Shown one piece after another: positions 10,702 through 63,262 of a stretch of 64,000 nucleotides of DNA (the stretch's first letter is position 1; each line of letters starts with the position of its first letter). A program made the translations under genes and the position numbers. Source of the stretch: a virus (taxonomy: Duplodnaviria; Heunggongvirae; Uroviricota; Caudoviricetes); the IMG/VR virus record IMGVR_UViG_3300028048_000122, one strand, 5' to 3'. Under the pieces are notes generated by a model, which saw only the letters and a program-made list of their open reading frames with translations, had not been told where the DNA came from and did not search any database.

Positions 10702-10704
10702 TCG

Positions 10705-10735
10705 TGGCGGCCTTCGGCCGCTACCATAAACCCCA
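10705..10735 (+). repeat. conserved hairpin-plus-tail element copy 2 (GTGGCGGCC-TTC-GGCCGCTACCATAAACCCC)
   Basis: Immediately downstream of a stop codon and upstream of the RBS of gene 10779. Confidence 0.5.
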
Positions 10736-10778
10736 TTTTGCCGTATCCACTATCTATTATGTTCACAGGAGGACGAGA

Positions 10779-11450
10779 ATGACTCTGGAAAATATCAGGC
10801 AAGAACTGAAACGAAGACACCTGAATCCCAAAATTGCTAAAGGTTTAACGGCGGCCATAATGATTGGTTCGCTCGTAGCCGGAGGAAGCGCTTATTATCA
10901 TAGCCATAAGACTATGGCTGAAGCGGCCGCTATGAGTGAAGAAGCTCAGCAGAAGATGGATGTATATCAGCAGTCCGTCGCCAAATATCAGGACGATATT
11001 GCCCGGCTCGAGGATGCTAATAAGCATCTCTTAGAGGAGAACCATGAGCTTAAGAACGAAGTGGAGGAACTCCGCCGGGAAGTAAACAGGGGATACTCAA
11101 TCGATGACGGTTTCGAAGTAGAAGTTACGGCCTACACGTTATCCGAAAGCGATTGTAATAAAGGCGCGAGTCACCCCGGTTACGGTTTAACAGCCAACGG
11201 CACCAATCTCGCGGGTCATACTCTGGAATCCGCCCGCGCTATAGCGGTGGATCCAAATGTTATCCCGCTCGGTTCTCAGGTACAGGTCGTATTCAAGGAC
11301 GCTTCCATGCAGCAGTATAACGGCGTTTATACCGCCTGCGATACGGGCGGCGCCATTAAAGGCAATATTATCGACCTGTTTGCCGGCGAAGGTGCCGATG
11401 ACCTGGCCATGCAGATTGGCCGCCGTCAGGCAACGGTAAAAATTCTTTAA
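10779..11450 (+). CDS. membrane-anchored 3D-domain (MltA/YocH-like) cell-wall hydrolase
   Basis: N-terminal TM helix and coiled coil; C-terminal AVDPNVIPLGS...YTACDTGGAIKGNIIDLF carries the three conserved Asp of the 3D domain. Confidence 0.6.
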   Translation: MTLENIRQELKRRHLNPKIAKGLTAAIMIGSLVAGGSAYYHSHKTMAEAAAMSEEAQQKMDVYQQSVAKYQDDIARLEDANKHLLEENHELKNEVEELRREVNRGYSIDDGFEVEVTAYTLSESDCNKGASHPGYGLTANGTNLAGHTLESARAIAVDPNVIPLGSQVQVVFKDASMQQYNGVYTACDTGGAIKGNIIDLFAGEGADDLAMQIGRRQATVKIL

Positions 11451-11455
11451 AAACG

Positions 11456-11498
11456 TTAAGAGTATATATTGACTTTAAGATACTCTTAATATATAATA
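11456..11498 (+). promoter_or_regulatory. consensus sigma70 promoter TTGACT-17-TATAAT inside 10-bp inverted repeat TTAAGAGTAT/ATACTCTTAA
   Basis: -35 at 11469-11474, -10 at 11492-11497; it faces the 1.1 kb ORF-free region and the tRNA array. Confidence 0.6.
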
Positions 11499-12636
11499 AA
11501 GTCATCAGGTAAAAAGACTCATGATAAGGGTAAAACATTGAAGGCTCCTTTCAGCGGGCGTGATGCAGACGCGTCCGCTATCATCTGGGCTCAAAGGTGA
11601 AAGTCTTAAGAGCTCGGCATTTTATCACACCTCCTCAATTATTTCTCTACATTTCTCTTTTTATCGCGATCATTTCACTGGTCGTATTCCTCCATCTGGT
11701 TCCCGGACAAGACACAAAACTGTCTAATTCATAATGACCTCCGACCAGCTTTCGGGCTGGTTGATACTTGAAAGAGCTTGTATCAAAACCTTGTTACCCC
11801 CTTGGCATAGATACTGGTGTACTCCTTTCTGATTTTGTTTGTGGTGATTGGCTCCTTTTCATTTTACCTCTCACTCTTTCAGGTATCAACGAACCCGAAA
11901 CATGGGTTCCATGGTGATTTGCCTTTCTTTCTAAGGCCAGCTTCTAGGCTGGCTGATATTCACGATAACTATAATAATCATGGATATCAGCGACCCTAGA
12001 GGTCGAAAAAATTTAACAAACAGAAAACTATGGCAAAGCATACCTCGGTTATAAAACGCAATATCATGCGTCCGAGAATGGCCCCGTAATTGATACTAAC
12101 AAACTGCAGTAGATATGCCTGCAGTGAGTATGTCCTCTCTTAGTGATAAAAGCGGGCGGCACGTAAAGTGTAAACGCGCGTATCTTGAGGTCATGTGCAT
12201 GCAATGCCGAGCATTAAAGCAGGAACTGACAGGGTTCCATAAGTGCGTGAATGCAATTGGTGCATTCCTCCGCCGCCAGTTAAGGCTCAAGGCCTGATAA
12301 ACCTTGAGATACACGAGGTATTTATCGAGATGAAACTTTGCTGTGATGTCCTCAAAAAGGACTATAACTGTCAGTCGCCGTACAAGTAGCCCAAGGCAAT
12401 GATACAGATCAGTATGCAGCTTTATAGCAATCTATAATTCTGAATGACGGGTGAAAGTTGAGGGTCACAATCCCTTTGGAGCTAGAAAGAGGCAAGAAGC
12501 GCGTGTCGACGGGCGCGTTGCTCAGACTTGTCTTCTCCGTGGCTGAATAAATGCAGAGCATCAAGTTGTGTATAGGGAAACCTGATGTTTTGCCGTAGTT
12601 TTGTGTTTGTTAATAACACAGGTGAACTAACTATTT

Positions 12637-12729
12637 GGAGTTGTGGCTGAGAGGCTGAAAGCGGCGCCCCGCTAAGGCGTTATACCCCGCTATAGGGTAT
12701 CGTTGGTTCGAATCCAACCAACTCCGCCA
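12637..12729 (+). tRNA. tRNA-Ser (anticodon GCU), type II, CCA encoded
   Basis: Acceptor GGAGTTG/CAACTCC, 3-bp D stem, anticodon stem GCGCC/GGCGT, loop CCGCTAA (C at position 33 is unusual), long variable arm, T arm GTTGGTTCGAATCCAAC. Confidence 0.7.
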
Positions 12730-12733
12730 TGAT

Positions 12734-12809
12734 GTACCTTTGGCGTAATTGGTAACACGGCAGTCTCCAAAACTGTAAGATGTTGGTTCGAGTCCAGCAG
12801 GGTATGCCA
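12734..12809 (+). tRNA. tRNA-Trp (anticodon CCA), CCA encoded
   Basis: Folded by hand; all positions fit standard 76-nt numbering (U8, A14, G18G19, U33, CCA, A37, T54T55C56). Confidence 0.85.
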
Positions 12810-12813
12810 TTAT

Positions 12814-12888
12814 GTTGATGTAGCTCAATGGGGATAGAGCACCGAAACTGTAACTTCGGAGACTCAGGTTCAAGTCCTGACATCGGCT
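12814..12888 (+). tRNA. atypical tRNA, Tyr-like anticodon loop aCTGTAAc (GUA) with 8-nt loop, type I body
   Basis: Acceptor GTTGATG/CATCGGC (2 G-U pairs), D arm GCTC-AATGGGGATA-GAGC, stem CCGAA/TTCGG encloses 8 nt, T arm TCAGG-TTCAAGT-CCTGA. Confidence 0.5.
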
Positions 12889-12997
12889 TAGCTAATTTAG
12901 TCTGACTGGTCTGATCAGCCGGTTAGGCGAAACACTACTGTAGTGGCCCTAAAGGGCGTGCTCGAAATCCCGAAGTACGTAAAATATGTCGGGATGT

Positions 12998-13072
12998 GGT
13001 TCCGTAGTATAGTGGTCAGTATATCGGCTTGTCACGCCGAGGACACGAGTTCAATTCTCGTCGGAACCGCCA
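12998..13072 (+). tRNA. tRNA-Asp (anticodon GUC), CCA encoded
   Basis: Acceptor GGTTCCG/CGGAACC; loop TTGTCAC; T loop TTCAATT. Confidence 0.85.
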
Positions 13073-13199
13073 TCATGTCCCAGTATCAGGCTAACGTCTG
13101 ATCAGAGGCATACATTTTTCAGGGCGCCCACCGCAGCGCGGCACCACCGTTAATTACACGCCTAATGCCAAATGCGGTTAACTTGAATAATTCCCTGTA

Positions 13200-13475
13200 A
13201 AGGGATTAGATATAGTTGTTGACTCAGACGGTCGGCAACAAAACGGTCACTATCCGGCCGCTCCGTTAACTAAAATCCGTCAGCTACCGGAGGGAAATAC
13301 GATAGGTCCTGAGTAAGACCGAACTGCTCGCTTCTAATGTCCTTCTCCCAGGCTAACGTCTGGTAGGGGATACAAAAACAATCCGGTCACCGTCCGGCCA
13401 CTTATATCGGCTCACAACGGCCCTGATATAAGGGAAACAAGACGGATCCTGGGTACGATATAACTGCCCACGCCC
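13200..13475. repeat. degenerate tandem duplication (~140 bp units) in non-coding DNA
   Basis: Units near 13255-13330 and 13393-13470 share CCGGCC...GGGAAA-ACA..GG-CCTG-GTA-GA...AACTGC...CTAATG; the motif CAGGCTAACGTCTG also occurs twice (13087, 13339). Confidence 0.4.
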
Positions 13476-13479
13476 TAAT

Positions 13480-13555
13480 GGTGCTCATCGTCTAATGGTT
13501 AGGACAGCAGTTTGTGGCACTGCTAATCCCGGTTCGACTCCGGGTGATCACCCCA
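13480..13555 (+). tRNA. tRNA-His (anticodon GUG) with encoded G-1, CCA encoded
   Basis: Extra 5' G pairing with discriminator C; anticodon stem GCAGT/ACTGC, loop TTGTGGC; T arm CCCGG-TTCGACT-CCGGG. Confidence 0.8.
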
Positions 13556-13585
13556 TTTAAAAATATAGGAGAGGAGTTGCTCCTT

Positions 13586-13828
13586 TTGTATAAGAAATAT
13601 AAGGAATATTTTCTGGCCGGCGGCGCGGCAATGAATATCATGAACGCCCTATGGTGGATCGTAGATCCTGAAAGATTCACTGAGATGCTCGAATGCTCCA
13701 CGGTATATGGAGTACTTTTGCTATTCGAGGCCTTCATCATCTTACCAGCCGTGCTATTCGTAGCTGATAAGGCATTCGATAAGTTACACGAGAAGCTCAA
13801 GAAATACCTGGTGATTAACGACAAATGA
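13586..13828 (+). CDS. small hydrophobic membrane protein
   Basis: TTG start after AGGAGAGGAG; two predicted TM segments; the track ORF start overlaps tRNA-His, so it was trimmed. Confidence 0.35.
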   Translation: MYKKYKEYFLAGGAAMNIMNALWWIVDPERFTEMLECSTVYGVLLLFEAFIILPAVLFVADKAFDKLHEKLKKYLVINDK

Positions 13829-14043
13829 AGAAAAAACTGGTTATCACCCAAGATACGATAGATAAGTATATAGCATACGTCATAGCGATGTGCGGCATAA
13901 TCGTGGCCACCTTAATGGTTTACGCTACGGCTAAAGCTGAGTATAACGTAGCTATTGAGTTGACTATGCTGACATTCGTTATCGGGCCGGCACTCGGCTT
14001 TCTGATAGAAAATATAGTTAATTTCATCAAAGAAAGGTTTTGA
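13825..14043 (+). CDS. small membrane protein (72 aa)
   Basis: ORF overlapping previous stop; two hydrophobic helices. Confidence 0.4.
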   Translation: MKKKLVITQDTIDKYIAYVIAMCGIIVATLMVYATAKAEYNVAIELTMLTFVIGPALGFLIENIVNFIKERF

Positions 14044-14201
14044 TTTTCTATGGTAAAAACTTATTCTAACAATACGAAAGATTATAAAGTAGGCAAAAGT
14101 CTCTTTTTCCCCAAGGCTAAATGTTGCGCTACAGTAAATAAGCCAGTTCAGGAAGGCCGCTTAATGGGCCGTTATGTTGCAACTACAGGCAACAAACACT
14201 A

Positions 14202-14426
14202 ATGTTTATCGATAAATACGGCTATTACGCCGTGATTTATAGTCTAGCATATTTTGTTAACATCACTATTTCTGTTCATAACGGCAACAATCCGCCACCC
14301 GAATGGTTTTGGCTTATAAGTTGTTTTTTATTCGGCCCAATTTGCTTAATGATTTTTTATAGAATAGCAGACTGGGTTGAAAAGAAATATCATATTTATA
14401 AGAAGCGAAAGAACAGTGAACTTTAA
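14202..14426 (+). CDS. small membrane protein (74 aa)
   Basis: ORF with two hydrophobic segments, basic C-terminus. Confidence 0.4.
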   Translation: MFIDKYGYYAVIYSLAYFVNITISVHNGNNPPPEWFWLISCFLFGPICLMIFYRIADWVEKKYHIYKKRKNSEL

Positions 14427-14585
14427 CAAGATATACATATTTGGCGCAACATATATGATTATCTGTTGCGTTGCAGCAATAATTATTTGTTCAAAAGCGC
14501 CAATCTAAACCCCCCTCCATGTGACCAACAAGGAAAAGTTGTTAAAACCTGCCATTGTAAAAATTCTATTCTAGGAGAGAAGAAC

Positions 14586-14855
14586 ATGACAGTATACATT
14601 GTTGCTGAGCATACTTTAGTAGATGATTGCGATCAGGACATTCTGGGTGTATTCGATAACGAAGAAGCTGCCAAAGCATGCCTTAAAGCCTATGTGAAAT
14701 CACGTTATTGGGGCAATGAAGACGAGATAGAAGATGACGGTACTTATTATCGCGATAGTGAATGGATGGTTGAAATCCATGAATGCGATATCAAAAAAGA
14801 ATTCAAACCTGAAGATTATTACTGGTATGAAGAACCCGAAGAAGACGAAGATTGA
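14586..14855 (+). CDS. hypothetical acidic protein
   Basis: ATG 14586 after TAGGAGAGAAG; acidic tail like early genes. Confidence 0.45.
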   Translation: MTVYIVAEHTLVDDCDQDILGVFDNEEAAKACLKAYVKSRYWGNEDEIEDDGTYYRDSEWMVEIHECDIKKEFKPEDYYWYEEPEEDED

Positions 14856-15243
14856 TTAATCTTCTCGCGTGACCTGACTGTTAGTTGCCAAGAGAACTAC
14901 ACAGCGAATAAAGATATACAGTGAAATATCAAGTAACTGATTGCAGTGAATGTCAAGTAACTGTATAGCCTCGGAGAGCCCCGAAAGAAACTTGGCCTGT
15001 GGCATCTCCAAAGGACACCGTAAACGCTAAAATGAATTACGGTATCATCCGGCCCTAGAGGACAAGCCGGATAAACGGAAATCGCCCCGGTTAAGTGCGA
15101 GGCTAAAATGACTTCATGTCTTCGGGCATGGTCACTGGACAAGGAAAAGTCTTTAAAACCTCTCACGGCTTTGGATGAGCGATAGATAAAAATCCAGACC
15201 ATCCTAAGGCGGTAGGATGTAAAATAAAGCCGCCCTCGATAAT

Positions 15244-15324
15244 GAGGCAGTAGCTCAAATGGCAGAGCAGACGGGAAAGCAAATGGGGCTTTCTTATGAT
15301 GGTGGTTCGACTCCTCCCTGCCTC
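15244..15324 (+). ncRNA. tRNA-like element with non-canonical anticodon arm
   Basis: Perfect acceptor GAGGCAG/CTGCCTC, normal D arm GCTC-AAATGGCA-GAGC, T arm GGTGG-TTCGACT-CCTCC. The anticodon arm is replaced by an 8-bp hairpin GGGAAAGC-AAATGGG-GCTTTCTT. Confidence 0.3.
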
Positions 15325-15429
15325 CCCTATATAATGCTCATAGTCTGGGGAACACCGGCCGGTAGACAGGTTCGATTCCTGTAATGAGCGCATGTTTCCC
15401 GATATCAAAGAATCGGGCACCAATGGCTA

Positions 15430-16235
15430 CGGGTGCGTATAAGTAGATAGCCAGCTTGAGTCACCGTGGACACTGGATGCCCCTATGTGTAGGAGCATGC
15501 CAGCTTTGCCCGAAGAAGGGGCGCGATCCACGACACAAAAGCTTTCCTTGCGGTGATAGGTTAACCGAAATAAGGGTCTCCATTAACCCTGGCATAGCGC
15601 CAAAAGAGATGACCATTATCGAAGCTTTCACTACCGTCTAACTGGGGAAGTAAGAACTGGATGGCCACGGTTTTTAGCACCCAGCAATAGACGATGTGAC
15701 AGCATTCCTTTCGGTGAAAGGTAAACCGAAAACCAACATTAAACCTGGTCCGCCCCGATAACGCCGTGACGTACAAACGGTAGCTCGGTAAAGTGGTAGC
15801 AAGGTTGCGCCAAGCGTACCTGGATTACTTTTATCTGGATAAACTAAAGTACACGGTTTATCAACTTAAGGATAATAACAGGCACGAAGGTGATTTAGCC
15901 TCCAAGGCGAAAAACGGCGTAGGTTAAGGGCACTACGTAATAAGCCGCCCGAGTCGGAAAAGCCGACATTAAACCTGCATAAGATATCTGCTTGTTATGG
16001 GGATAGAGCAGAGAAACCGGTGGCTACGGCATTAATCCGGTAAACGTCAAAGACATGTAGGGCTCCCCTGCGGGGTGAGTAAGGTACTTGACGGCCGCAA
16101 AAAGACTTTTAGACATCTCAAAGCGAGAACTCGGTCATGAAGACTAACCCATCTTCAAATTCTCCAGATGCTGCTTATCTTTTCGGGCATCAAAAATATG
16201 GTCTTGGCGAATATAATGTAATAGAAAGGTCAATA
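15430..16235 (+). ncRNA. candidate large structured ncRNA (ORF-free ~0.8 kb inside tRNA island)
   Basis: No ORF above 60 aa on the + strand; internal recurring motif CCGAAA...ACATTAAACCTG occurs three times; many local helices; context inside a phage tRNA array. Confidence 0.25.
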
Positions 16236-16239
16236 GTTT

Positions 16240-16536
16240 ATGACGGTTTTAGATGCTCCGTCTACTGTCGAAGTAGATAGAAAAATGCTTTATTGCCTGG
16301 CAAGACGCTTTCAGTCGCTTGAGGCAACAGCAGGCAAGGAAAATTCCCCATTTATGGGATGTGCATGGTGCAAGCTAACTAATGGGGACGAAAAAAAGAA
16401 CTGCATTCATTTCACGAAAGGTGTGGAGTTTTATAAATATTTTAGGGAACTCACTGGAGTGAATCTGTCTATTATTGCGCCAGAAGGCAACAAAATGGAT
16501 AAAGAAGTTGAAATCGGCGAAAAAACCTGGTATTAA
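16240..16536 (+). CDS. hypothetical protein (98 aa)
   Basis: ORF with AGAAAGG RBS. Confidence 0.45.
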   Translation: MTVLDAPSTVEVDRKMLYCLARRFQSLEATAGKENSPFMGCAWCKLTNGDEKKNCIHFTKGVEFYKYFRELTGVNLSIIAPEGNKMDKEVEIGEKTWY

Positions 16537-17119
16537 AGTCTATTATATCATATTCGCCAAGACTAGGCAGGACGACTAGTTATCGTCAATTGCCGTGCCG
16601 CCTTACGAAGCGAGTAGCGCCATGATTCTCTACGGGGGCTTGGCGCGGGCGACAAACATTCAGACCTTGTAAGCGAAGGCAGAAGGGACGCCTTCAATCA
16701 AATCGGTGAAGCTTACTCCTAGTAATGGCCATTTGGCAAAGCTCGGTGGAAAATCCGACAAGGTGCTGCTAATGCTTCGGGCACTAATTAATCACATAAC
16801 TGCTTGTTATAAGCGCGTGTATGACTACCGTGGAGGGGCTGCGCGTGATGGGAGAGGCTCTGCCCGATAGTGGCCAAAAGGTTCAACTACCGTGAGTCCC
16901 ACGGAGAAACAATAAGCCCTGTACCTTATGAAAACAGGCAAAGTGCTGCTTTATGAGAGTTGTTCGGGCACTAAAAACCTGCACTGGCAACTTCATCATC
17001 TTTCAATGCCAGTAAAAGCGTTTGATAACGTTCATCAGCCATTTCGGCTGATTAAGATAAATCTACTAAAAGATAGGTTTGTTTTAATGAACCGATATGG
17101 AAAGAAAGGAAGGGCGGCA

Positions 17120-17680
17120 ATGCCACAAAAAGTTAAATTGTATCTTCTTGGCGGTACTGCTGTCATGGATTTAGTATATTCAGCAACATCTCCTGTTATT
17201 CAAGTGTACTTTATAAGCTTAATAAGTTCCAGCGTTTTAGCGGCGGCCAACATTCTGACGACTGCTTTAGCTGCAGGAGTTAATGCATCTATCCAGTCTG
17301 ATAGACTTAAGGATTTCTACAGACGTCATTTTCTCGGGATAATCGTAATAGATATTGTCTGTTTTGCACTTATTAATTTCGAAGGAATTTCTATTCCTGA
17401 AGTAAGATTTCTCGGTCTAGCGATATTAAATGCGGTATCTTCTACGTTATGGTTTACTGTAGTAACTGATGCTATTAACCATCAGATTGAAGGCGACAAG
17501 TTAACGAAATGGAATAGCTTATCTAAAACAGTTAATCTTACGGCGGCACTTATCGGCAGTGTAATCGCGATAGTATTCACTACGCATATCGGTGTAGAGT
17601 TCTGCATCGCGGCACAGTGCCTAGCGAACTTATTTATGGGCGCAACCGACTGGCTGGCATATAAAAGAATACGATACTAA
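17120..17680 (+). CDS. polytopic membrane protein
   Basis: ATG 17120 after AAAGGAAGG; at least 5 hydrophobic helices. Confidence 0.5.
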   Translation: MPQKVKLYLLGGTAVMDLVYSATSPVIQVYFISLISSSVLAAANILTTALAAGVNASIQSDRLKDFYRRHFLGIIVIDIVCFALINFEGISIPEVRFLGLAILNAVSSTLWFTVVTDAINHQIEGDKLTKWNSLSKTVNLTAALIGSVIAIVFTTHIGVEFCIAAQCLANLFMGATDWLAYKRIRY

Positions 17681-17694
17681 AAGAGGTGCGATTT

Positions 17695-17862
17695 GTGTTT
17701 TTATTTATTGTGGATGCAATGTTCATTTTGACAGAACTTTTTTGTGCGATGAGTATACCGCCTCTTCTGCTTAACGGATATTTTATGTATAGCCTTGTTC
17801 TTGCTTTAACTTTATACGTGGTTTTTCAACTAGATAGGGAATTTCATGTGCGGTATTGGTAA
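17695..17862 (+). CDS. small hydrophobic peptide (55 aa)
   Basis: GTG start after AAAGAGGTG; not in ORF track (below cutoff). Confidence 0.25.
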   Translation: MFLFIVDAMFILTELFCAMSIPPLLLNGYFMYSLVLALTLYVVFQLDREFHVRYW

Positions 17863-18061
17863 GAAAAACAAGATAGTTAGTCTCCAAGACTATAAAGAAG
17901 AGAACAGCCCGCATGAAGTAGCCGAAGTAATCTGCCTGCATTGTATGAATCGTTGGATATCTGTACATGAACAAGGAGAATGGCTTGCTAATTGGGAATG
18001 TCCTAAATGCGGTAAAGCGGGCGGCATTATATATACGGGGCAGCCATTGCCGGAGGAATAA
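17846..18061 (+). CDS. small Zn-ribbon protein (CLHC...CPKCGK)
   Basis: Two CxxC pairs. Confidence 0.45.
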   Translation: MCGIGKKNKIVSLQDYKEENSPHEVAEVICLHCMNRWISVHEQGEWLANWECPKCGKAGGIIYTGQPLPEE

Positions 18062-18243
18062 TGGAATTCAAATTAAACTCAAAGCTCGAAGAATGGGTAA
18101 AAGAACATAATAAAATCTGTCATTCAAATGCTTCAGCCGGCGAACATTATCAGTTTGAGTTCCTGCCGACAGGCATTATGGAAATCCAGACCGTAAAATG
18201 CCTTTGCTGCGGAGAAGAAAGGACAGAATACGATGGTTGGTGA
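18061..18243 (+). CDS. hypothetical small protein
   Basis: ORF overlapping prior stop (TAATG). Confidence 0.4.
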   Translation: MEFKLNSKLEEWVKEHNKICHSNASAGEHYQFEFLPTGIMEIQTVKCLCCGEERTEYDGW

Positions 18244-18466
18244 ATGGGCGCAAAAGTTAACAAAAGAACAAGTCATTAAACATATTCAAGACGGCATAAA
18301 AAAAGCGCATAAAGCATTTTTGGCTCAACAAGCTATCCGTTCAATGAATAAATCCCATAGAAGGCGCCGGCAGATAGCAAAAGCTTACAAGCTGATTTGC
18401 CCAACGGTAGAAATTTGGCTACCGTGCAAGATACATCAAGTTGCAACAACTATAAAATTGTCATAA
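18233..18466 (+). CDS. hypothetical basic protein
   Basis: ORF; weak signals. Confidence 0.3.
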   Translation: MVGEWAQKLTKEQVIKHIQDGIKKAHKAFLAQQAIRSMNKSHRRRRQIAKAYKLICPTVEIWLPCKIHQVATTIKLS

Positions 18467-19714
18467 CAATTGACAAGGAAAAGTCAGTAAAACCCATCAC
18501 AGCAGGAGTGTCTGTGAATACGTTGAGCTCGCACCCAGGAGTCAATAGCCGTGTTGAAGTCCGGCAACGTAGAGGCCAAACACTTAGTCATAATAGCAGT
18601 GGCAGCCCGCAAGGCAAGTGTACGGTGCAAGTCCGTACAGACATTGGCAAGAGAGCTCCAGAACCTGCAGTAAAGCAGCAAAAATCCTCCGCCCACGTTC
18701 GCAACAGGTAAAGGGCGTAAAAGATGTAAACCTGTCCGGCCGAACGCAAAACCTGCCGATGTGCACTTAAGCAGGAAGGTTACTGCCGCCTTAAGAGAAG
18801 AAAAGTGACTCCATGGAGAACTCCCGTATGGTCCGTTCCGCTCCATGGTATAGCTATTGCGTTATGCTATGTAAAAAGTACGCACGTTCGGGCAAACGAA
18901 AGAACCCGCGTAAGGAACAACGAGAGAGATTCCTGTTTTCCCAGCGTTTTTGGTAGAAAAATGTTGCGCGCCTCTTGACCTGGCCAGTCAAGAAAAAGTC
19001 AGCGATATGACCAGGGGGTAATTGGCTTGAGCCCCCGTTATCATGGGAGAATAGACCTGGAATGGAGCCAGGACGGCATTTAGCGTCGTGCAGGGTACGC
19101 GCCCTCAGCGTAAGTTCAAATCTTACATCTCCCGCCTTCAAAATAAATTAAACAGGAGATAAATCGAATGTCTTATCCAGATTGGCTTGACGACGAGGAA
19201 GACAAGATTGACTTCTTTGTTTGATAAGGGGCCATCAGTAGTCCACTGCAAAGGACGAGTCTGTAGAATGATGGGTTGGCATCCTCCGTTTCGGGCGCTT
19301 CGTAAAAGTACCACGGGAGTTGCGGTAGAATTTGCAGCTACCGCAGAATTACTCCCGTAATTATCATGAGCACGAGGCCCAGAGGGCGATACCAAGCAAA
19401 AAGCTTGCAGTGCTCTTTCTATCATGTCCCTAATGAGGTTAACGTCTCGGCGGGGAGGAATCCGTTTTAGTTTATCCTGAGGAATAGGCAATGATGAGTG
19501 CGCACTTATCAGCTGAAACGAAGGGTAAATGAGAGCCCGTCGGCAACCGGGTGCGGAAATAGTATGCAGAGAACTATAACCTGCCGGAGACTCGATTGCC
19601 GTCATAGTTGTCGAGCGTAGAATACCACGTCAGGTGTATCGAAGGAGCTGGTAATCTCCTGACGTCAGCCAAAAACTTACCAGAGGCGGCACATGCCATG
19701 TCGTCTCGCCTTAC

Positions 19715-19789
19715 GGTTCCAAAGCTCAACGGTCGAGCAAACGCCTCATAAGCGTCAGGCTGAGGGTTCAAATCCCTCTGGAACCACCA
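19715..19789 (+). tRNA. tRNA-Met (anticodon CAU), CCA encoded
   Basis: Acceptor GGTTCCA/TGGAACC; D arm GCTC-AACGGTC-GAGC; loop CTCATAA; T arm GAGGG-TTCAAAT-CCCTC. Confidence 0.85.
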
Positions 19790-19992
19790 TAATGGAATAA
19801 GCGAGGTAAAAGTCTCGCGAATTCCTCTCTTTTCCTAAACACACATGAACAACTGCGCCCAGACAGTATAACAGCTGGGTAGTGTTTCGGTGTGCTGAGC
19901 ACGAAAGAAATTCAGCCTTCCACTTATGAGGGGTCGTTAAGAGGCGGGCGCATCGTCGTCGTAGGTTCGAACCCTACCGTCCCTCAACTCAT

Positions 19993-20062
19993 GTCAGCGT
20001 CGGCATAATGGTAATGCCAGGGCCGCAAGCCTGAAATGCGGGTTCGACTCCCGCCGCTGACC
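19993..20062 (+). ncRNA. tRNA-like element with truncated anticodon arm
   Basis: Perfect acceptor GTCAGCG/CGCTGAC, D arm GGCA-TAATGGTAA-TGCC and T arm GCGGG-TTCGACT-CCCGC, but only 19 nt between the D and T arms. Confidence 0.35.
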
Positions 20063-20215
20063 GTACGAGCCATATGGCGCGTCATTCTTTTCGAGGTTTT
20101 CAAGACTTAAACAAGAGAATCTTCGCAACATTATAGGCTTTGACTGGCGTCTGCTTTATGGCAGGAACACAGGGAGGCAAAGCTAGGGGCAGTTGGCAAC
20201 AGCTGCTCCGGTACT

Positions 20216-20297
20216 AGGGGTATCGCCAAGTGGCTAAAGGCACGGGACTTTGACTCCCGCATTCTTCGCGCTGGTTCGAATCCAGCTGCCCCTGCCA
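20216..20297 (+). tRNA. tRNA with anticodon UUG (Gln by anticodon) but type-II-like body, CCA encoded
   Basis: Acceptor AGGGGTA/TGCCCCT; 3-bp D stem with 11-nt loop; stem CGGGA/TCCCG; loop CTTTGAC; 10-nt variable region; T arm GCTGG-TTCGAAT-CCAGC. Confidence 0.55.
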
Positions 20298-20303
20298 TAT
20301 CAT

Positions 20304-20380
20304 GCGTCACTTAGCTCAACAGGCAGAGCCTACGGGTCTAGCTCGTAGAGATTCGGGTTCAAATCCCGAGGGACGCACCA
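20304..20380 (+). tRNA. putative amber-suppressor tRNA (anticodon CUA), CCA encoded
   Basis: Acceptor GCGTCAC/GGGACGC (one mismatch); D arm GCTC-AACAGGCA-GAGC; stem TACGG/TCGTA; loop GTCTAGC with U33 and centre CTA; T arm TCGGG-TTCAAAT-CCCGA. Confidence 0.5.
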
Positions 20381-20385
20381 TTATT

Positions 20386-20497
20386 ATGGGAAGCACCCAA
20401 GGTGGGTTGTAAGTGCCAAAGCAGGTTCGACTCCTGCCACCTCGTAAGAGGTTTGAGGAAAACAGCGGCCCGGTTCGATTCCGGGGCTTCCCGCTTT
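20386..20497 (+). ncRNA. composite tRNA-like element (two T-arm hairpins inside perfect GGGAAGC/GCTTCCC stem)
   Basis: Hairpins GCAGG-TTCGACT-CCTGC and CCCGG-TTCGATT-CCGGG; CCAAGGTGGG motif. Confidence 0.3.
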
Positions 20498-20907
20498 AAA
20501 ACTACCGTAGGGACTACGGAAAGTTACGCCTGTGGAGAGAGTGTAAGACGGATATATTCCAGTTCTCGACGAATCAGGAAGCTCACGCCTCTATAGGCGG
20601 GGGTAGTTCACCATGAAGCTGATGTATTGGTGTCAGTTTGTCTGGTGTGATAACGACACGAGATAAACTATATGGCCATATATTGGCACCGGCAAAAGCT
20701 CAAAACAAAAGTAAGTAGCCGGGGCAAGACCAGGACACCTCCTGGATTTTATTATGTACATCGAGGTTATTATGCATATGCTAATTATCCGAAAAGTTAG
20801 GTGTGGCTTCCGACTCGATGCGGCGAAGAGAGGGTAAAAGGCATAGTGAAGATATCTACAAAGGGCAACCGCGTAAGCGAGCTCCCCGCGAACCGGATAT
20901 CTATCAT

Positions 20908-20982
20908 GGCTTGGTAGTCTAGTGGTTAGGCGACGGTCTGCAAAACCGTTTTACGCCGGTTCGATTCCGGCCCAAGCCTCCA
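20908..20982 (+). tRNA. tRNA-Cys (anticodon GCA), CCA encoded
   Basis: Acceptor GGCTTGG/CCAAGCC; stem ACGGT/ACCGT; loop CTGCAAA; T arm GCCGG-TTCGATT-CCGGC. Confidence 0.85.
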
Positions 20983-20994
20983 TATCATGGGAAA

Positions 20995-21105
20995 CGCCAT
21001 GGTGGCGGAAAAGAGCATTCGGGTTCGATTCCCGACGCCCTGCGGGGTCCGTGGTGGTCAGCCTGGTTCGAGTCCAGGGTTTCCCTCGTTAATCATTTAG
21101 CCGTA
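20995..21105 (+). ncRNA. two tandem tRNA-like minihelices (GGTGG motif + T-arm hairpin)
   Basis: CCATGGTGGCG...TCGGG-TTCGATT-CCCGA and CCGTGGTGGTCA..CCTGG-TTCGAGT-CCAGG; no D/anticodon arms. Confidence 0.3.
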
Positions 21106-21556
21106 GTAATTCTGCGTATGTGAACCTTCCGATACAGCGCCTTAAACGCTCGGAAGCACGGGCTCACAACCCGTGGCAGCTAATATCCTCTGGTTTAAGC
21201 AGAGAACCGGCGTCAGCGAACTACTTTGCATGCGAGAGTTCATTAAGCTGACGAAAAATGGTAGCGGCGGCGAAGTCCTTGCGGTGGATGAGTAGCCAAG
21301 GAGTTCCTATATTGGACAGTAAGAGCGGGTTCGATTCCCGACACGTCGGCAGGCGTCCTGGTGGTAATAAGTGCTGGTGCGCGCAGACTTCAATTCTAGA
21401 TACGAAGTCTGTGCAATTCCAGCAGCTCCATGTGCGTAAACACATAAAAAGAAGCTGATAACCGTGGCGTCAGTTTTCCCTGGCCCGATGGGGACAATAA
21501 TATCATCGGGTTTTGCCGTAGGTGAGGGCGGATACTCATCGTTCACGGGCTATTAT

Positions 21557-21646
21557 GGAGATGTACCCAAGTGGTTTAAGGGGACTGCTTTGAAAGCAGA
21601 TAGGCCGCAGTGATGCGGTGCGCGGGTTCGAATCCTGCCATCTCCT
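21557..21646 (+). tRNA. tRNA-Ser (anticodon UGA), type II
   Basis: Acceptor GGAGATG/CATCTCC; 3-bp D stem CCC/GGG; loop TTTGAAA; variable-arm hairpin CCGCA-GTGA-TGCGG; T arm GCGGG-TTCGAAT-CCTGC; no CCA. Confidence 0.75.
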
Positions 21647-21692
21647 CTCTGTCACGACAAACGCCTTGACGTGGCGACAGAGCTTTTTACCA
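21647..21692 (+). terminator. hairpin + T-run after the tRNA array
   Basis: TCTGTCACG...CGTGGCGACAGAG followed by GCTTTTTACC. Confidence 0.4.
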
Positions 21693-21726
21693 AGATTTGT
21701 CAAAAAAGAAAAGGGGGAAGTTCTCT

Positions 21727-21852
21727 ATGATGAGAGCAATGTTACTTTGTTTGACGGTAGCATTTGTCGGATTATTCGTATATTTCGGTATACACTATGC
21801 CAAAGATGTCGGCCACGAAATAAAGAACACCCTGAAAAAGTTATTCGGTTAA
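21727..21852 (+). CDS. small membrane peptide (41 aa)
   Basis: ATG after AAGGGGGAAG; one TM helix; below ORF-track cutoff. Confidence 0.3.
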   Translation: MMRAMLLCLTVAFVGLFVYFGIHYAKDVGHEIKNTLKKLFG

Positions 21853-21876
21853 AAGCCGAGAAAGGGGATTTTTCTT

Positions 21877-22758
21877 TTGGAGGAAAAAAACATTGGTTTG
21901 GTAGGCATCTTGGTAGGCATGGTAATCTTCGTGGTCGCCGCATTCATGTGCGTCACGAGAATCGGTCCGGGTTATGCGGGCGTCATCTATAACATGGATG
22001 GCGGTATTCAGGACGAAACACTCGCGCAGGGCTTCCATATGGTAGCTCCGTGGAAACACGTAATCGAGTATCCGATTTCTACCGAAACGGTTTACTACAC
22101 CAAAAACAATGTTGACGGCGACGACAAGGACAAGAAGACCGATAAATCCGTTAATGTCAACACGAAAGACGGCAAGCAGGTAAATGTAAGCGTTACTTAC
22201 GCTTATCACATGGATGTGGAAAAGTTACCGACAGTATTCGCTAAGTTCCGTGGTCAGGACATTGAGGTAATTCAGAATGGCTATATGAAGAATGCCATGT
22301 ACGAGGCCTTGAACAACGTGACCTCCCAGTATTCCTTGATGGAACTGGTGGGCGATAAGCGCCCCGAAATCAATCAGAAAATTTTCGAAGCGTTTCGCAA
22401 TGAACTGGAAGAATACGGTATCGTAATCGAAACCTTCAATCTGTCCGACGTAGTTCCCGATGAAGCCACCGCTACGGCCATCCAGAACGTAGTAAATGCA
22501 CAGAATGCTCTGCTGCAGGCAAAAATCGAGAAGGAACAGGCTGAAGTAGAGGCTGAAAAGGCCCGCGTTACCGCTAAAGGTAAAGCTGATGCTGCCCTGA
22601 TCGAAGCTGAAGGTACAGCACAGGCTAATGCTAAACTGCAGCAGTCCTTGACGCCCGGCGTACTCCAGCAGAGAGCCATTGAAAAGTGGAACGGCGAGCT
22701 CCCGAAGATTGGCGGCAATGGTAGCGGCCTGATTCTCGGAGCTGATTTCCTGAAATGA
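21877..22758 (+). CDS. SPFH/Band-7 (prohibitin/flotillin-like) membrane protein
   Basis: N-terminal TM, SPFH core (GYAGVIYNMDGGIQDETLAQGFHMVAPW...), C-terminal coiled-coil AEVEAEKARVTAKGKADAALIEAEG. Confidence 0.7.
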   Translation: MEEKNIGLVGILVGMVIFVVAAFMCVTRIGPGYAGVIYNMDGGIQDETLAQGFHMVAPWKHVIEYPISTETVYYTKNNVDGDDKDKKTDKSVNVNTKDGKQVNVSVTYAYHMDVEKLPTVFAKFRGQDIEVIQNGYMKNAMYEALNNVTSQYSLMELVGDKRPEINQKIFEAFRNELEEYGIVIETFNLSDVVPDEATATAIQNVVNAQNALLQAKIEKEQAEVEAEKARVTAKGKADAALIEAEGTAQANAKLQQSLTPGVLQQRAIEKWNGELPKIGGNGSGLILGADFLK

Positions 22759-23985: not shown

Positions 23986-23988
23986 ATG

Positions 23989-24017
23989 TGGCGGCCTGTC
24001 GGCCGCTACCATAAACC
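23989..24017 (+). repeat. conserved hairpin-plus-tail element copy 3 (GTGGCGGCC-TGTC-GGCCGCTACCATAAACC)
   Basis: Immediately downstream of the gmk-like gene stop and upstream of the RBS of gene 24061. Confidence 0.5.
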
Positions 24018-24060
24018 TTTTTGTACGGTACTGAAGAAAACCATGATGGAGGAAAAAATT

Positions 24061-25338
24061 ATGTTATTAACGTTTAAGAGCATTGACGCCGATAGTATAT
24101 CAATTCATGCTGATAACAAGCATGGTTTGATCATGGCGTCTTTTTTGTGTCCTTGCACGGAACTGGTTAGCCAGGACATCAATAAGCACGCGAATCTTCG
24201 CGGCGCCAATCCCTTGCAGGCACAGACGATTCGCCTGATTAATTCCCTTAAGAAAGACCCGTCGCATTTCGTTTATAAATGCGATGCCATTACGCTTACG
24301 GCACAGGATATCTATACTTCTAAGACGTTAGCTACGGGCAAAACCGAAGTCGTATTGGAATACCCCGATGATATGGACAAAGAAAGCAATAAGCTGACGT
24401 TCGGTCTGATTAACGGCGGGCATCGCCTGGAAGCCATGAACTTCCTGAACAATATCGACGCTCTCCCGGAAGAAGCCTATATCAAGGTAGAAGTCGTAGC
24501 TGGCCCCGGCGTAGACAACGAGTTCGTAAATGAGCTGGTCGTTACCCGTAACAGCAATATGGCTATCGCCAAGAATGACGTATATAACAAGCAGGGAAAA
24601 TATGACGTCTTACGCGAAATCGTCGAAGAACTGGACTTCTCTGAAGAAGTCGCTTATCAGTCCGGCGACATCAGCAAGAACATCAATCCGGCTCAGTTAT
24701 GTGCTATTATCGCCACGTTCTCGGAACAGTGCCATGCTTATCATCCAGTACTGCATACCGTCATAGAGACGAAGCGGAATACCATGCAGATTTTCCATCA
24801 TGCAGGTCAGTATGCCGTAGAATGGGTGGACCGCAACAAAGATATTGTCCGTAAGAATAAGGAATTCTTCACTCAGGCAATCGTTCTCGCAGGCGTAATG
24901 GACGAGGTAGCAACCGAGTTTGCTACGAAATATCCGAACAATCGTTTGGACCTCAGCCGCGCAAAACGTTATCCCATCGTAAAACAATCCGAAGAAAAAT
25001 GGGATAAAATCCGCCGGCCGGCAACGCAGAAACTGTCCTGCCTGATCGCCGGACTGTCTGAGCTCACTCGTTATGATGAAACGACGAAAACTTATGATTT
25101 CGTGCCATACGCATCGGAATTTGTTACCAAGAAGCGTCTGACGGATTACGTAAAGCAGTTCCTATCCAGTTCGGAAATCTTCCCTGATAAGAACTTCAAG
25201 AAAGATATCGCGGAATACACGAATGCGGAATTCCGCAGTAATCCTAAGTATTTCCGTGAAGCGGCGCGCATTATGCGCAATGAGTATGCTGCCTTTATCG
25301 TGCAGAAGGAAACCAAGGCGGCTAACAGCGTAGCGTAA
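24061..25338 (+). CDS. hypothetical protein (425 aa) with ParB/DGQHR-like motif (NGGHRLEA)
   Basis: ATG 24061 after GATGGAGG; motif resemblance only. Confidence 0.45.
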   Translation: MLLTFKSIDADSISIHADNKHGLIMASFLCPCTELVSQDINKHANLRGANPLQAQTIRLINSLKKDPSHFVYKCDAITLTAQDIYTSKTLATGKTEVVLEYPDDMDKESNKLTFGLINGGHRLEAMNFLNNIDALPEEAYIKVEVVAGPGVDNEFVNELVVTRNSNMAIAKNDVYNKQGKYDVLREIVEELDFSEEVAYQSGDISKNINPAQLCAIIATFSEQCHAYHPVLHTVIETKRNTMQIFHHAGQYAVEWVDRNKDIVRKNKEFFTQAIVLAGVMDEVATEFATKYPNNRLDLSRAKRYPIVKQSEEKWDKIRRPATQKLSCLIAGLSELTRYDETTKTYDFVPYASEFVTKKRLTDYVKQFLSSSEIFPDKNFKKDIAEYTNAEFRSNPKYFREAARIMRNEYAAFIVQKETKAANSVA

Positions 25339-52946: not shown

Positions 52947-53705
52947 ATGAACTACTGGAATGCTAGACAACAGAATGCCGCCCGTGCACAGAGACGGACG
53001 GAAGAATTTGAAGCTAACTCTACTCCAGCCATGAGTCGTGCTTTGGCCAACACGGTTACGTATGGCGGCAAGAATAAAAAACCTGCGTATATACTGAATA
53101 CCAGCCCCTATGCGGATTTTGAAGTCGTACAGATGTCTACGACCGAAGCCATCTACGAGCTTGGTCATAATGATTGTATCGCGCTGAACTTCGCATCATA
53201 TAAGAATCCGGGTGGCGCTTTCTTGAAAGGTTCCTGCGCTCAGGAAGAATCGCTCTGCCACGAAAGCTGGCTATATAATATTCTGGCTCGGCAGACCGAC
53301 TATTATGACTGGAACAAGAAGCATCTGAACCGCGGGCTTTATCAAGACCGCGCTCTTTATACTCCTAACGTAGAGTTTGAACACGATGGCAAACGAGCCG
53401 TAGCTGATATCCTTACTTGCGCAGCGCCCAATCGTAGCATTATCGAGAAAGGATATACAAACTTTACTGAGGAAGAGAATAAGACGGCAATGATTGAGCG
53501 AATGGTTTTCATATCCCAGATTGTTTCTATGCATGCCCATAAAGATGTTCTCATTCTCGGCGCATGGGGATGTGGCGTATTCAAGCAAGACCCCAAATTT
53601 GTAGCAAGAATTATCCGCAATACGCCGTGGTATAATATCAATAAAGTTGTACTGGCGGTTATCGATAAGCCGACATATGAAATCTTTAAGAAGGTGTTTG
53701 CATGA
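52947..53705 (+). CDS. microbial PARG-like macrodomain protein (TIGR02452/DUF2263-type)
   Basis: NFASYKNPGGAFLKGSCAQEESLC matches the conserved PARG-like signature (AxxxPGGGxxxGxxAQEExLC). Confidence 0.55.
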   Translation: MNYWNARQQNAARAQRRTEEFEANSTPAMSRALANTVTYGGKNKKPAYILNTSPYADFEVVQMSTTEAIYELGHNDCIALNFASYKNPGGAFLKGSCAQEESLCHESWLYNILARQTDYYDWNKKHLNRGLYQDRALYTPNVEFEHDGKRAVADILTCAAPNRSIIEKGYTNFTEEENKTAMIERMVFISQIVSMHAHKDVLILGAWGCGVFKQDPKFVARIIRNTPWYNINKVVLAVIDKPTYEIFKKVFA

Positions 53706-62410: not shown

Positions 62411-63262
62411 CCGTCCCAAAGCGGCTCTCGTGGCAATTTCTCGTTTGCGACGATAAATCTTCCCATGGTAGCTCTGGACGCTAAGGGCGATATCAATAAG
62501 TTCTTTGAATTATTCGATGAACGTATCCTGTTAGCCAAGGAATACTTGGAATATCGTTATAACATTATCGCTCATAAACAGGTGAAAAATTTCCCGTTTT
62601 TAATGGGCGAAGGGCTTTGGCTCGACAGTGAAAAATTGGGACCGGAGGATGAAATCGGGGAGGTATTGAAGCATGCGTCTATTTCGATTGGCTATGTCGG
62701 CCTTGCGGAGTGTCTTGTTGCTCTTACCGGTGCTCATCACGGAGTATCGGAAGATGCGCAAAAGCTCGGGCTCAAAATAATTGGTCATCTCAGAAACATG
62801 ACGGACAAATTCACGGAAGAAACTCATATGAATTGGTCAACCTTCGCTACTCCAGCCGAGTCATTCGCCGGCGTTGCGTGCCGCGCATGTAAGAAGAAAT
62901 ACGGCCAGATTAAAGGAGTAACTGATCGTGAATATTTCACGAACGGAAACCATGTTCCCGTATATTATCCCATCAAGGCTATTGATAAGATTCGTATTGA
63001 GGCGCCATACCATGCACTGGCTAACGCCGGAAACATTTCGTATATTGAGATGGATGGCGACCCTACTAAGAATGTGAAAGCGTTCGAGAAAATTGTACGG
63101 GCCATGCATGACGCGAATATGAGTTATTTTTCTATCAACCATGCTGTAGATCGCGACCCCGTATGTGGGTTCACGGGCATCATCGAAAACGAATGTCCGC
63201 ACTGCCATCGTCACGAAGAAACTGTTATTAACAGCATCAAGAATGTAAAGAGGGTTCAATAA
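62411..63262 (+). CDS. nrdD: NrdD exon 2 (glycyl-radical and Zn-ribbon C-terminus)
   Basis: GSRGNFSFATINLP (class III RNR signature), DPVCGFTG glycyl-radical motif, CPHCH C-terminal Zn site. Confidence 0.7.
   Translation, partial: PSQSGSRGNFSFATINLPMVALDAKGDINKFFELFDERILLAKEYLEYRYNIIAHKQVKNFPFLMGEGLWLDSEKLGPEDEIGEVLKHASISIGYVGLAECLVALTGAHHGVSEDAQKLGLKIIGHLRNMTDKFTEETHMNWSTFATPAESFAGVACRACKKKYGQIKGVTDREYFTNGNHVPVYYPIKAIDKIRIEAPYHALANAGNISYIEMDGDPTKNVKAFEKIVRAMHDANMSYFSINHAVDRDPVCGFTGIIENECPHCHRHEETVINSIKNVKRVQ

Follow-up and report, generated by a model that had tools for sequence, protein, structure and literature searches.

A 10-kb phage RNA island with tRNAs, a ROOL RNA, tRNA look-alikes and conserved structured units that match no Rfam family

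The DNA analyzed here is a 64,000-nt stretch of the virus record IMGVR_UViG_3300028048_000122 (hereafter the window), and its subject is an RNA island at positions 11456-21700, bounded by a gene for a 3D-domain protein (10704-11450) and by an SPFH/Band_7 gene (21877-22758). The island carries 10-12 transfer RNAs (tRNAs) and a single ROOL RNA, along with six or more tRNA-derived look-alikes and roughly a dozen other units free of open reading frames (ORFs), all on the plus strand, and its carrier is an uncultured, large (jumbo-type) rumen or gut phage. In the reading that we consider probable, the island is a co-transcribed array of stable RNAs, matured at tRNA and tRNA-like punctuation, whose products act jointly on the host translation and tRNA apparatus. 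We put at even chances the more specific proposal that it encodes new classes of structured phage RNA, all cut from one tRNA-punctuated precursor: C2 (~800 nt, pseudoknotted), multi-helix RNAs of ~230-420 nt (C1a, C3, D1, E2 and F2) and the double-T-arm mimics E1 and F1 (unit names as in Table 1). The occurrence of ROOL beside phage tRNA islands is already known; the novelty here lies in how many conserved and covarying RNAs outside known families accompany it and how large they are, and in the conservation of the tRNA mimics.

Relatives of the locus were found through the SPFH protein as anchor; their contigs, drawn from IMG/VR, JGI metagenomes, ENA and Logan, measure 55-335 kb. GenBank phages gave no match to the window in near or distant search mode, the 3D-domain protein as anchor in IMG/VR gave no relatives, and a membrane-protein anchor gave one locus without RNA homology. 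All ORF-free units have homologues in the same order in about ten contigs (L026, L003/L114, L109, L111, L116, L117, L118 and L120), and some of them in L002/L107, L033 and L035; the spacers of homologous phages are thus related to and collinear with those of the window, not unrelated sequence. The identity of the units is often above that of adjacent coding DNA: compared with L003, it is 87.5% for C2 (15604-16192), 90.9% for D3a, 90.2% for E0 and 97.2% for F1, against 73.8% for the SPFH region.

Conserved structure was assessed with a uniform pipeline (nhmmer, MAFFT, RNAalifold) in which the consensus energy was expressed as a z-score against 40 column-shuffled alignments, and six coding segments of the same phages were treated identically as controls. 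The z-scores ran from -3.8 to -8.9 for 11 units (C1a, the 5' part and the middle of C2, C3, D1, D3a, D3b, E0, E2, F1b and F2) and from -1.4 to +2.3 in five of the six coding controls. Compensatory pairs were above all 40 shuffles except in C3, D3b and F2, where they lay over the null mean and within the null range, and the plus strand had the lower consensus energy in 9 of 12 units (for E2, -78 vs -50). Searched against 4227 Rfam families, with sub-threshold matches covered in the window and in relative L111, the unnamed units gave no match even at E<=10, the exceptions in the window being tRNA or T-loop fragments. An earlier note, made from the letters of the window alone, had proposed that the region holds functional RNAs beyond a simple tRNA array; this is supported by a full-length Rfam match to ROOL past the standard tRNAs, by the conservation of the spacer units and by their excess of compensatory pairs.

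The unit C2 has the same order in all lineages, with a conserved 5' domain (15392-15600), variable middle modules and a conserved 3' domain (15966-16200). The middle modules are duplicated, swapped or absent (missing in L107 and L035, with additional copies in L117 and L116), and a short module, GCWUUCCUUNCGGUG..GGUNAACCG, recurs within the unit. For the 3' domain (11 sequences) a pseudoknotted model of 49 pairs was obtained in which 91.9% of cells are paired and 19 pairs are compensatory, compared with 7.6+-1.7 in shuffles (0/500) and 1-4 in slid controls; the 5' and middle domains gave z=-7.1 and -5.5. Because the 5' and 3' domains are collinear across lineages, C2 may be taken as a single RNA of ~800 nt. 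In E2, 15 of the 78 pairs are compensatory, compared with 7.3+-1.7 in shuffles (0/500) and 0-2 in slid controls. D1 was considered as an RNase P RNA on account of the motif AAGGAAAAGUC, and this candidate was dropped in the absence of an Rfam RNase P match.

Folding of single sequences was less informative. In the island, sliding-window z-scores of minimum free energy (MFE) were no better than those of the genes on either side, and not even ROOL or the tRNAs stood out; single-sequence MFE was dropped as evidence because it fails to separate the island from its coding flanks. The earlier description of three ORF-free stretches of ~1 kb with dense helices therefore holds for their poverty in ORFs, and the helices could not be demonstrated by this type of folding, the evidence for structure coming from conservation and covariation instead.

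Table 1. Features of the RNA island (window positions; pair counts and, unless marked as sliding-window, z-scores from the consensus structures).
Feature	Position	Strand	Evidence
Sigma-70-type promoter TTGACT-17-TATAAT, directed into the island	11469..11497	+	11/12 positions match
Long hairpin just 5' of ROOL	11940..12003	+	58-nt self-complementary match, 79%; MFE -31.5 kcal/mol; sliding-window z ~-6
ROOL RNA (Rfam RF03087) with closing helix	12013..12613	+	Rfam 12020-12603, 215.3 bits vs gathering score 99.1
First tRNA cluster: Ser-GCU, Trp-CCA, tRNA with non-standard anticodon loop (12814-12888, contains GUA), Asp-GUC	12637..13072	+	ARAGORN; Rfam 52-68 bits
S3a, S3b: two tandem related units	13073..13480	+	Direct repeat 13075-13100 / 13337-13362; homologues in L026, L022, L111
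tRNA-His (GUG), G-1 encoded	13481..13555	+	ARAGORN, Rfam; G = base 13480
Five small protein ORFs: two membrane-like, one DUF7336	13556..14855	+	ORF chain; DUF7336 E=1.3e-5; GC 0.34-0.40
C1a: structured RNA, ~230 nt	14856..15085	+	9 sequences, 54 pairs, 11 compensatory, z=-7.1
C1b: begins with hairpin GGAC-AAGGAAAA-GUCU, then UAAAACC	15100..15243	+	5 compensatory pairs
tl1: cloverleaf, invariant loop AAAUGGG, no U33	15244..15325	+	Rfam tRNA 38.8 bits; alignment and consensus structure
tl2: acceptor stem and T-arm, without anticodon arm	15338..15392	+	Alignment and consensus structure
C2: modular structured RNA, ~800 nt	15392..16200	+	Alignment of 11 relatives
Insertion with 25-nt inverted repeats (92% complementary) at its ends, 98-aa ORF	16201..16563	+	363 bp; weak phrog_1664 match
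C3: ~420 nt	16609..17031	+	nhmmer homologues; 107 pairs, 9 compensatory, z=-3.8
Five small protein ORFs: membrane protein, two zinc-ribbon-like, basic 77-aa protein	~17129..18466	+	No Pfam/PHROG family
D1: multi-helix RNA, ~380 nt, long-range closing helices	18467..18850	+	9 sequences, 74 pairs, 22 compensatory, z=-8.9
D2tl: tRNA-shaped, long Ser/Sec-like variable arm, G73, invariant anticodon-like loop AUUUAGC (UUA)	19045..19137	+	Consensus cloverleaf, 8 sequences
D3a	19225..19362	+	36 pairs, 10 compensatory, z=-4.3
Short acceptor-stem unit between D3a and D3b	19368..19420	+	AUCAUG leader at 19363
D3b, adjoining tRNA-Met	19426..19714	+	67 pairs, 8 compensatory, z=-5.7; AUCAUG leader at 19421
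tRNA-Met (CAU)	19715..19789	+	ARAGORN, Rfam
E0, its 3' end an armless tRNA-like element (~19925-19990); then weak tRNA-like 19993-20062	19840..20062	+	Alignment; z=-6.6
tRNA-Gln (UUG) and suppressor tRNA, anticodon CUA	20216..20380	+	ARAGORN, Rfam
E1: double-T-arm tRNA-like RNA, acceptor stem GGGAAGC/GCUUCCC, no CCA encoded	20388..20494	+	Alignments
E2: ~300 nt, 3' helix stops 1 nt before tRNA-Cys	20608..20906	+	8 sequences, 78 pairs, 98.6% paired (624 cells), z=-7.7
tRNA-Cys (GCA)	20908..20982	+	ARAGORN, Rfam
F1: E1 paralogue, 93-98% identity across clade	20989..21086	+	Alignments
F1b	21092..21297	+	10 compensatory pairs, z=-4.0
F2, T-arm-like hairpin at 21322-21342, adjoins tRNA-Ser	21298..21556	+	10 compensatory pairs, z=-6.1
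tRNA-Ser (UGA), last RNA gene of the island	21557..21647	+	ARAGORN, Rfam
Terminator-like hairpin CUCUGUC...GACAGAG, then CUUUUU, after last tRNA	21648..21690	+	Read from sequence and folded
(U)AU[C/U]AU leader sites	12809, 13072, 19040, 19363, 19421, 20299, 20383, 20903, 20984, 21552		
Junction ROOL to tRNA-Ser			Gap 24 nt
Junction S3b to tRNA-His			Gap 0-1 nt
Junction D3b to tRNA-Met			Gap 0-1 nt
Junction E2 to tRNA-Cys			Gap 0-1 nt
Junction F2 to tRNA-Ser			Gap 0-1 nt
Junction C3 to transfer-messenger RNA (tmRNA) in L116, L117, L118			Gap ~20 nt

Whether these units are functional at all is the point at issue in one alternative, in which the locus is a recombination hotspot that gathers tRNA genes, while most of the spacers and armless pieces are functionless, decaying remnants conserved by close kinship only. 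Some tRNA-like elements do align with intact tRNAs (in L033 and L109, a tRNA-Gln is aligned to the E0 3' end), the cargo differs among relatives, the island is absent from L250, L122 and L248, and the homologues come from one clade, to which the matches of collection-wide pattern scans are also confined. Decay of this kind is nevertheless a poor fit to spacer units that are conserved as much as adjacent coding genes or more, to substitutions that are preferentially compensatory (with 98.6% of 624 cells paired in E2 and 22 covarying pairs in D1), to the lack of such a signal in five of six coding controls of like divergence, and to tRNA mimics whose loops are invariant and whose stems covary; we regard this alternative as improbable. 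The collection-wide scans relied on exact patterns: those for C2, D1 and D3b motifs gave IMG/VR matches in the same clade, and the C2 module pattern, run on IMG/VR and GTDB genomes, gave chance matches only, in high-GC coding DNA.

The cargo at this locus varies from relative to relative, with tRNAs, ROOL and tmRNA in L002/L107 and L111, tmRNA and tRNAs in L003/L114, L116, L117 and L118, and HEARO alone in L005, L007 and L037 (in L037 at 2075-2303). Since the cargo varies in this way and the island is absent in distant relatives (L250, for one, has SPFH directly after its 3D gene), the locus is an accretion hotspot for RNA genes. No tmRNA was found in the window by ARAGORN or Rfam, 15-nt T-loop fragments aside, and the tmRNA that follows C3 in three relatives is thus missing from it.

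The ROOL match is full-length, covering model positions 1-574 with the outer model pairs aligned, and the RNA is closed by a helix with 29-nt arms (12013-12041 / 12585-12613) that are 90% complementary. It is 79% identical to the ROOL of L002, and ROOL is also present in L111 and L107. The long hairpin just upstream of it is a possible candidate processing site. GOLLD gave no Rfam match at the gathering score, at E<=1 (11000-22500) or at E<=10 (14856-19714). Formation of cages made of RNA alone has recently been demonstrated for both ROOL and GOLLD.

ARAGORN called 10 tRNAs, all on the plus strand (two for Ser, GCU and UGA, one each for Trp, Asp, His, Met, Gln-UUG and Cys, a CUA suppressor and one whose anticodon loop is unusual), and Rfam added two weak matches at 15244-15325 and 19993-20062, which agrees with the at least nine canonical tRNAs listed in the earlier note; its reading of the tRNA-His as carrying an encoded G-1 was likewise correct. 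Seventeen copies of the T-loop motif GGTTCRANTCC were counted in the window, every one of them on the plus strand and within 12705-21635 (0.22 expected; 17 reached in 0/100 shuffles). Six of the 17 lie outside the called tRNAs, in tRNA-like elements that lack an arm or have two T-arms, and the armless tRNA shapes reported before are accordingly real. In two tRNA-model matches, 12814-12888 and 19993-20062, the anticodon loop apparently has 8 nt (ACUGUAAC and GCCGCAAG, respectively); ARAGORN gave the first as 'tRNA-???' and did not call the second.

The suppressor tRNA (20304-20380, labeled 'Pyl' by ARAGORN) has the anticodon CUA, a 5-bp anticodon stem, U33 and a purine at 37. The tRNA aligned to it in L117, L118 and L109 has a GCA (Cys) anticodon. 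Its presence, along with that of the UUA-loop element D2tl, invites the alternative that the ORF-free stretches are translated under another code, or else that they are leaders or untranslated regions (UTRs) regulating the small ORFs, for which the occurrence of the AAGGAAAA hairpin (below) 5' of the DUF7336 ORF at 14530 may be cited. Taking TAG, TGA or TAA as sense, however, opened no long plus-strand ORF in these stretches, so alternative genetic codes were rejected, and most units precede tRNAs, not ORFs. No pair of long plus-strand ORFs in the same frame is split by a single TAG in the 64-kb window, which does not extend to the late genes; the suppressor tRNA therefore rescues no hidden genes here. 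TAG terminates 4 of the 45 long ORFs in the window. This alternative is largely refuted, and we hold it, in either form, to be highly improbable.

The tRNA look-alikes fall short of canonical tRNAs in differing ways. A canonical anticodon loop (7 nt, U33, purine at 37) is found only in D2tl, the D stem of which has 5 bp; tl1 has no U33, E1 and F1 have a pyrimidine at 37, and tl2 and the 3' element of E0 have no anticodon arm. Two of the weak elements, tl1 (38.8 bits) and 19993-20062 (39.8 bits), score above the Rfam tRNA gathering score and were not called by ARAGORN, while tl2, D2tl, the E0 3' element, E1 and F1 gave no tRNA match in the window with either program. In D2tl, compensatory changes are found in the 'anticodon' stem (8 sequences), and its homologue in L111 (8282-8370) gives a weak tRNA-Sec match (30.5 bits vs a gathering score of 47). 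The UUA anticodon of D2tl would read the ochre stop TAA, which is the commonest stop codon of the window. The E0 3' element keeps acceptor stem and T-arm without the anticodon arm, and a true tRNA-Gln stands at the aligned position in L033 and L109. E1 and F1 are built alike: inside a 7-bp acceptor-like stem lie a D-like hairpin, a copy of the T-arm at the anticodon position (loop UUCGACU in E1, UUCGAUU in F1), an extra hairpin and the true T-arm. Of the 17 pairs tested in 15 sequences none is broken (100% paired) and five covary, and the L003 copy of F1 was called by ARAGORN as a 97-nt 'tRNA-Ser(cga)'.

Double T-arms were also looked for in IMG/VR, as two T-loop motifs 28-42 nt apart, which gave at least 120 loci (L124-L243) in unrelated viral contigs. 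A perfect 7-bp stem surrounds both T-arms in 34/127 among the matches listed, compared with ~7 expected by our own estimate, and the architecture may therefore be widespread. Some of the matches end in ACCA (e.g. L215 and L216). A literature search for double-T-arm tRNA-like RNAs and new large phage RNAs turned up nothing specific.

Such elements could also be decoys, the look-alikes and perhaps the larger RNAs sponging host anticodon nucleases, tRNA-modifying enzymes or other tRNA-binding defense effectors, with tRNAs of altered anticodon loop replacing or escaping cleaved host tRNAs. The tRNA-like stems of E1, F1, tl1, D2tl, 12814-12888 and 19993-20062 with their non-standard, invariant 'anticodon' loops would suit this role, as would the recurrence of double T-arms with their enclosing stem in other viral contigs. 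The Tyr-like (GUA), Asp (GUC) and His (GUG) genes are grouped at 12814-13555, and the QUN-anticodon class, which includes Tyr, Asp and His, is the target of colicin E5-type nucleases. Yet no defense or counter-defense protein partner was identified, units that are not tRNA-like (C2, D1 and E2) would be left unexplained, and handles for processing by RNase P/Z account for the same elements equally well. We consider decoys unlikely as the main explanation of the island, though for the tRNA mimics such a role is a live alternative. A partnership of the Ro/Y-RNA type for the tRNA mimics was also considered and found unsupported, there being no TROVE, RtcB or RNA ligase gene in the window and no YrlA-type Rfam match.

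The favored reading, a punctuated array, draws on how the units are joined. Both tRNAs and non-tRNA units have a leader, (U)AU[C/U]AU, ahead of their first G, and two hairpin motifs are island-specific, with stems that covary across relatives. The first, NNNN-AAGGAAAA-N'N'N'N' followed by UAAAACC, is found at the start of C1b, at the start of D1 (as UGAC-AAGGAAAA-GUCA) and 5' of the DUF7336 ORF (14530); these three are its only copies in the window, and three were reached in 0/100 shuffles. The second, NAGG-YUARCG-UCUN', follows a leader or lies a short way downstream of the 3' end of a tRNA or tmRNA. S3a and S3b each follow an AUCAUG/UAAUG leader and contain a CAGG-CUAACG-UCUG hairpin, and S3b adjoins tRNA-His.

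In principle, transcription from the conserved promoter, and probably from internal promoters too, would yield one or a few long precursors, which host tRNA-maturation enzymes would cut into stable RNAs, such that an RNase P cut at the 5' end of a tRNA, tmRNA or tRNA-like element would also be the 3' end of the large RNA upstream. The (U)AUCAU leaders and the two hairpins may serve as punctuation or as protein-binding signals. In the most speculative step, the released RNAs would act together on host translation and the tRNA apparatus during infection, with the tRNAs and the suppressor tRNA adding decoding capacity, ROOL forming an RNA cage, and the unnamed RNAs and tRNA mimics binding or titrating tRNA-handling factors. 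Joint action is favored because the neighbors are tRNAs, a suppressor tRNA, ROOL and, in relatives, tmRNA.

Several points weigh against this interpretation. The homologues all belong to one phage clade (54-98% identity to the window copies across units), so that few independent substitutions lie behind the covariation counts. These counts are also inflated, since the alignments that were tested had served to predict the structures; the column shuffles and coding controls speak against an artefact, and one coding control (SPFH_c) nonetheless reached z=-4.0. The signal is weakest for C3 (z=-3.8; 9 compensatory pairs, null 6.7+-2.3), and the candidate long-range helices between the 5' and 3' parts of C2 are weak, at 7 bp with 1-2 covarying pairs. 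Co-transcription, the processing sites and the stability of the RNAs are all putative, and no RNA-repair, Ro or RNA-binding protein in the window points to a partner. Finally, the array is interrupted by eleven small protein ORFs and so is no pure RNA operon; internal promoters are probable.

Several known systems resemble the island in part. Phage and prophage tRNA islands with ROOL or GOLLD have been described (Weinberg et al. 2017, PMC5737381; Kretsch et al. 2025, PMC12286853), both RNAs being phage-encoded and 'often near tRNA islands' (PMC12286853; PMC5737381), and the ROOL of the window is likewise co-oriented with its tRNA cluster and lies 24 nt upstream of tRNA-Ser. Unlike those islands, however, this one is only ~6% ROOL (~580 nt), has no GOLLD and contains about a dozen conserved units without an Rfam family, one of them ~800 nt long. 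The tRNA cluster of phage T4, of ~1.6 kb, encodes eight tRNAs and the stable RNAs 'species 1 and 2' in common precursors that are trimmed by host RNase P. Co-oriented tRNAs and non-tRNA RNAs are common to both phage loci, whereas the present one spans ~10 kb, with units of 230-800 nt, tRNA mimics, small ORFs and processing that we infer. Formation of 3' ends by tRNA punctuation, or by the MALAT1-mascRNA mechanism, is established in mitochondria and mammalian nuclei; here, too, large units are directly followed by a tRNA, tmRNA or tRNA-like element, the cleavage being predicted from sequence.

Arrays of tRNA and tmRNA are known from huge and jumbo phages, and the related contigs of 55-335 kb, with tmRNA and many tRNAs at the locus, are of this kind. 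The window differs in that it has no tmRNA and no Ro/TROVE, RtcB or RNA ligase gene, and its island is mostly neither tRNA nor tmRNA. RNA repair and Ro/tRNA-like partners of jumbo phages have been reviewed (PMC7824862).

Large, intricately folded RNAs of bacteria and phages are rare, ROOL, GOLLD, OLE and raiA being examples at the level of Rfam, and the locus supplies new RNA candidates for structural and biochemical study for which alignments with compensatory changes are in hand. It also offers a genomic argument that ROOL works with the tRNA and translation machinery, within a larger RNA module instead of alone, and a testable model in which RNase P cuts at tRNA-like punctuation. Armless or double-T-arm elements of phage tRNA clusters, moreover, can be conserved and need not be debris. 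If the more specific proposal of new RNA classes cut from one precursor is true, this clade deploys a whole set of large non-coding RNAs, which might mimic tRNA or, as ROOL and GOLLD do, self-assemble, to act on host translation or tRNA-directed defense.

The borders and signals of the island agree with the first description of it. The two flanking proteins were assigned to the 3D and SPFH/Band_7 domains as claimed, and the textbook promoter said to point into the island was confirmed as the best sigma-70-type site of the region, with a counterpart in L111 (TTGACA-N18-TATAAT, directly after its 3D gene). Promoter-like sites as a whole showed no excess (18 vs 19.1 in shuffles). In L034 3198-15419 (SPFH identity 70%), eight exact TTGAC-N18-TATAAT matches lie on one strand within 12 kb; nhmmer detected no window island unit there. 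The 0.5-kb interval between promoter and ROOL (11498-12012) is pyrimidine-rich with negative GC and AT skew, ends in the strong 64-nt hairpin, has homology to L111 only (11467-11625) and contains two GTG-start ORFs of 55 and 60 aa without a family match. At the other end, the hairpin after the last tRNA, which was not listed by a simple terminator scan, may mark the end of the transcription unit. Immediately 5' of SPFH lies a 41-aa hydrophobic ORF (21727-21852, MMRAMLLCL...) that is conserved and is a gene call in nearly all relatives.

The claim that the island has almost no protein-coding capacity must be amended. About 11 short ORFs that are likely genes, several of them called as genes in relatives as well, occupy 13556-14855, 16240-16536 and ~17129-18466 (~2.8 kb, 27%); the claim stands for the remaining ~7.4 kb, which is ORF-poor even with TAG, TGA or TAA taken as sense. 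Searches of the small island ORFs against Pfam and PHROG returned DUF7336 and a weak phrog_1664 match only. The latter lies in the inverted-repeat-bounded insertion, which looks like a small mobile element; it is present in the window and L026 only and absent between C2 and C3 of L116, L117, L118 and L109.

This insertion bears on a last alternative, which makes the large units guide or scaffold RNAs belonging to mobile elements (IS200/605 omega RNAs, introns, retrons) whose protein genes were lost from this copy or never present in it. Relatives (L003/L114, L118, L037 and L005/L007) do carry HEARO with an IscB-like ORF (RRXRR+HNH) in or beside the island, within it in L003/L114 (L003 7429-9001) and outside it, 3' of SPFH, in L118 (12275-13870), and a TnpB-like gene lies 5' of the 3D gene in L250. 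In the window, though, no HEARO (RF02033), group I/II intron or retron was matched, even at E<=10, the order of the units is fixed across relatives, and the HEARO/IscB pairs sit between collinear island units (L003, L114) or beyond SPFH (L118). We find this account very hard to credit.

The surroundings of the island are of phage type, with an ORF6N anti-repressor, guanylate kinase and AIPR, followed by RecA, UvrD, SNF2, an NAD-dependent ligase, a primase and NrdD. The gene for NrdD, the anaerobic ribonucleotide reductase (59965-63262), is in two ORFs, 59965-61338 and 62393-63262, parted by a 277-aa ORF with a weak zinc-ribbon match, and in L122 and L250 this split is occupied by HNH or NUMOD4 ORFs, which suggests an intron or intein-like insertion; there was no Rfam intron match. 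The AIPR family is known from abortive-infection systems, and the phage encodes both an AIPR-domain protein (23986-25338) and a microbial PARG-like protein (52947-53705).

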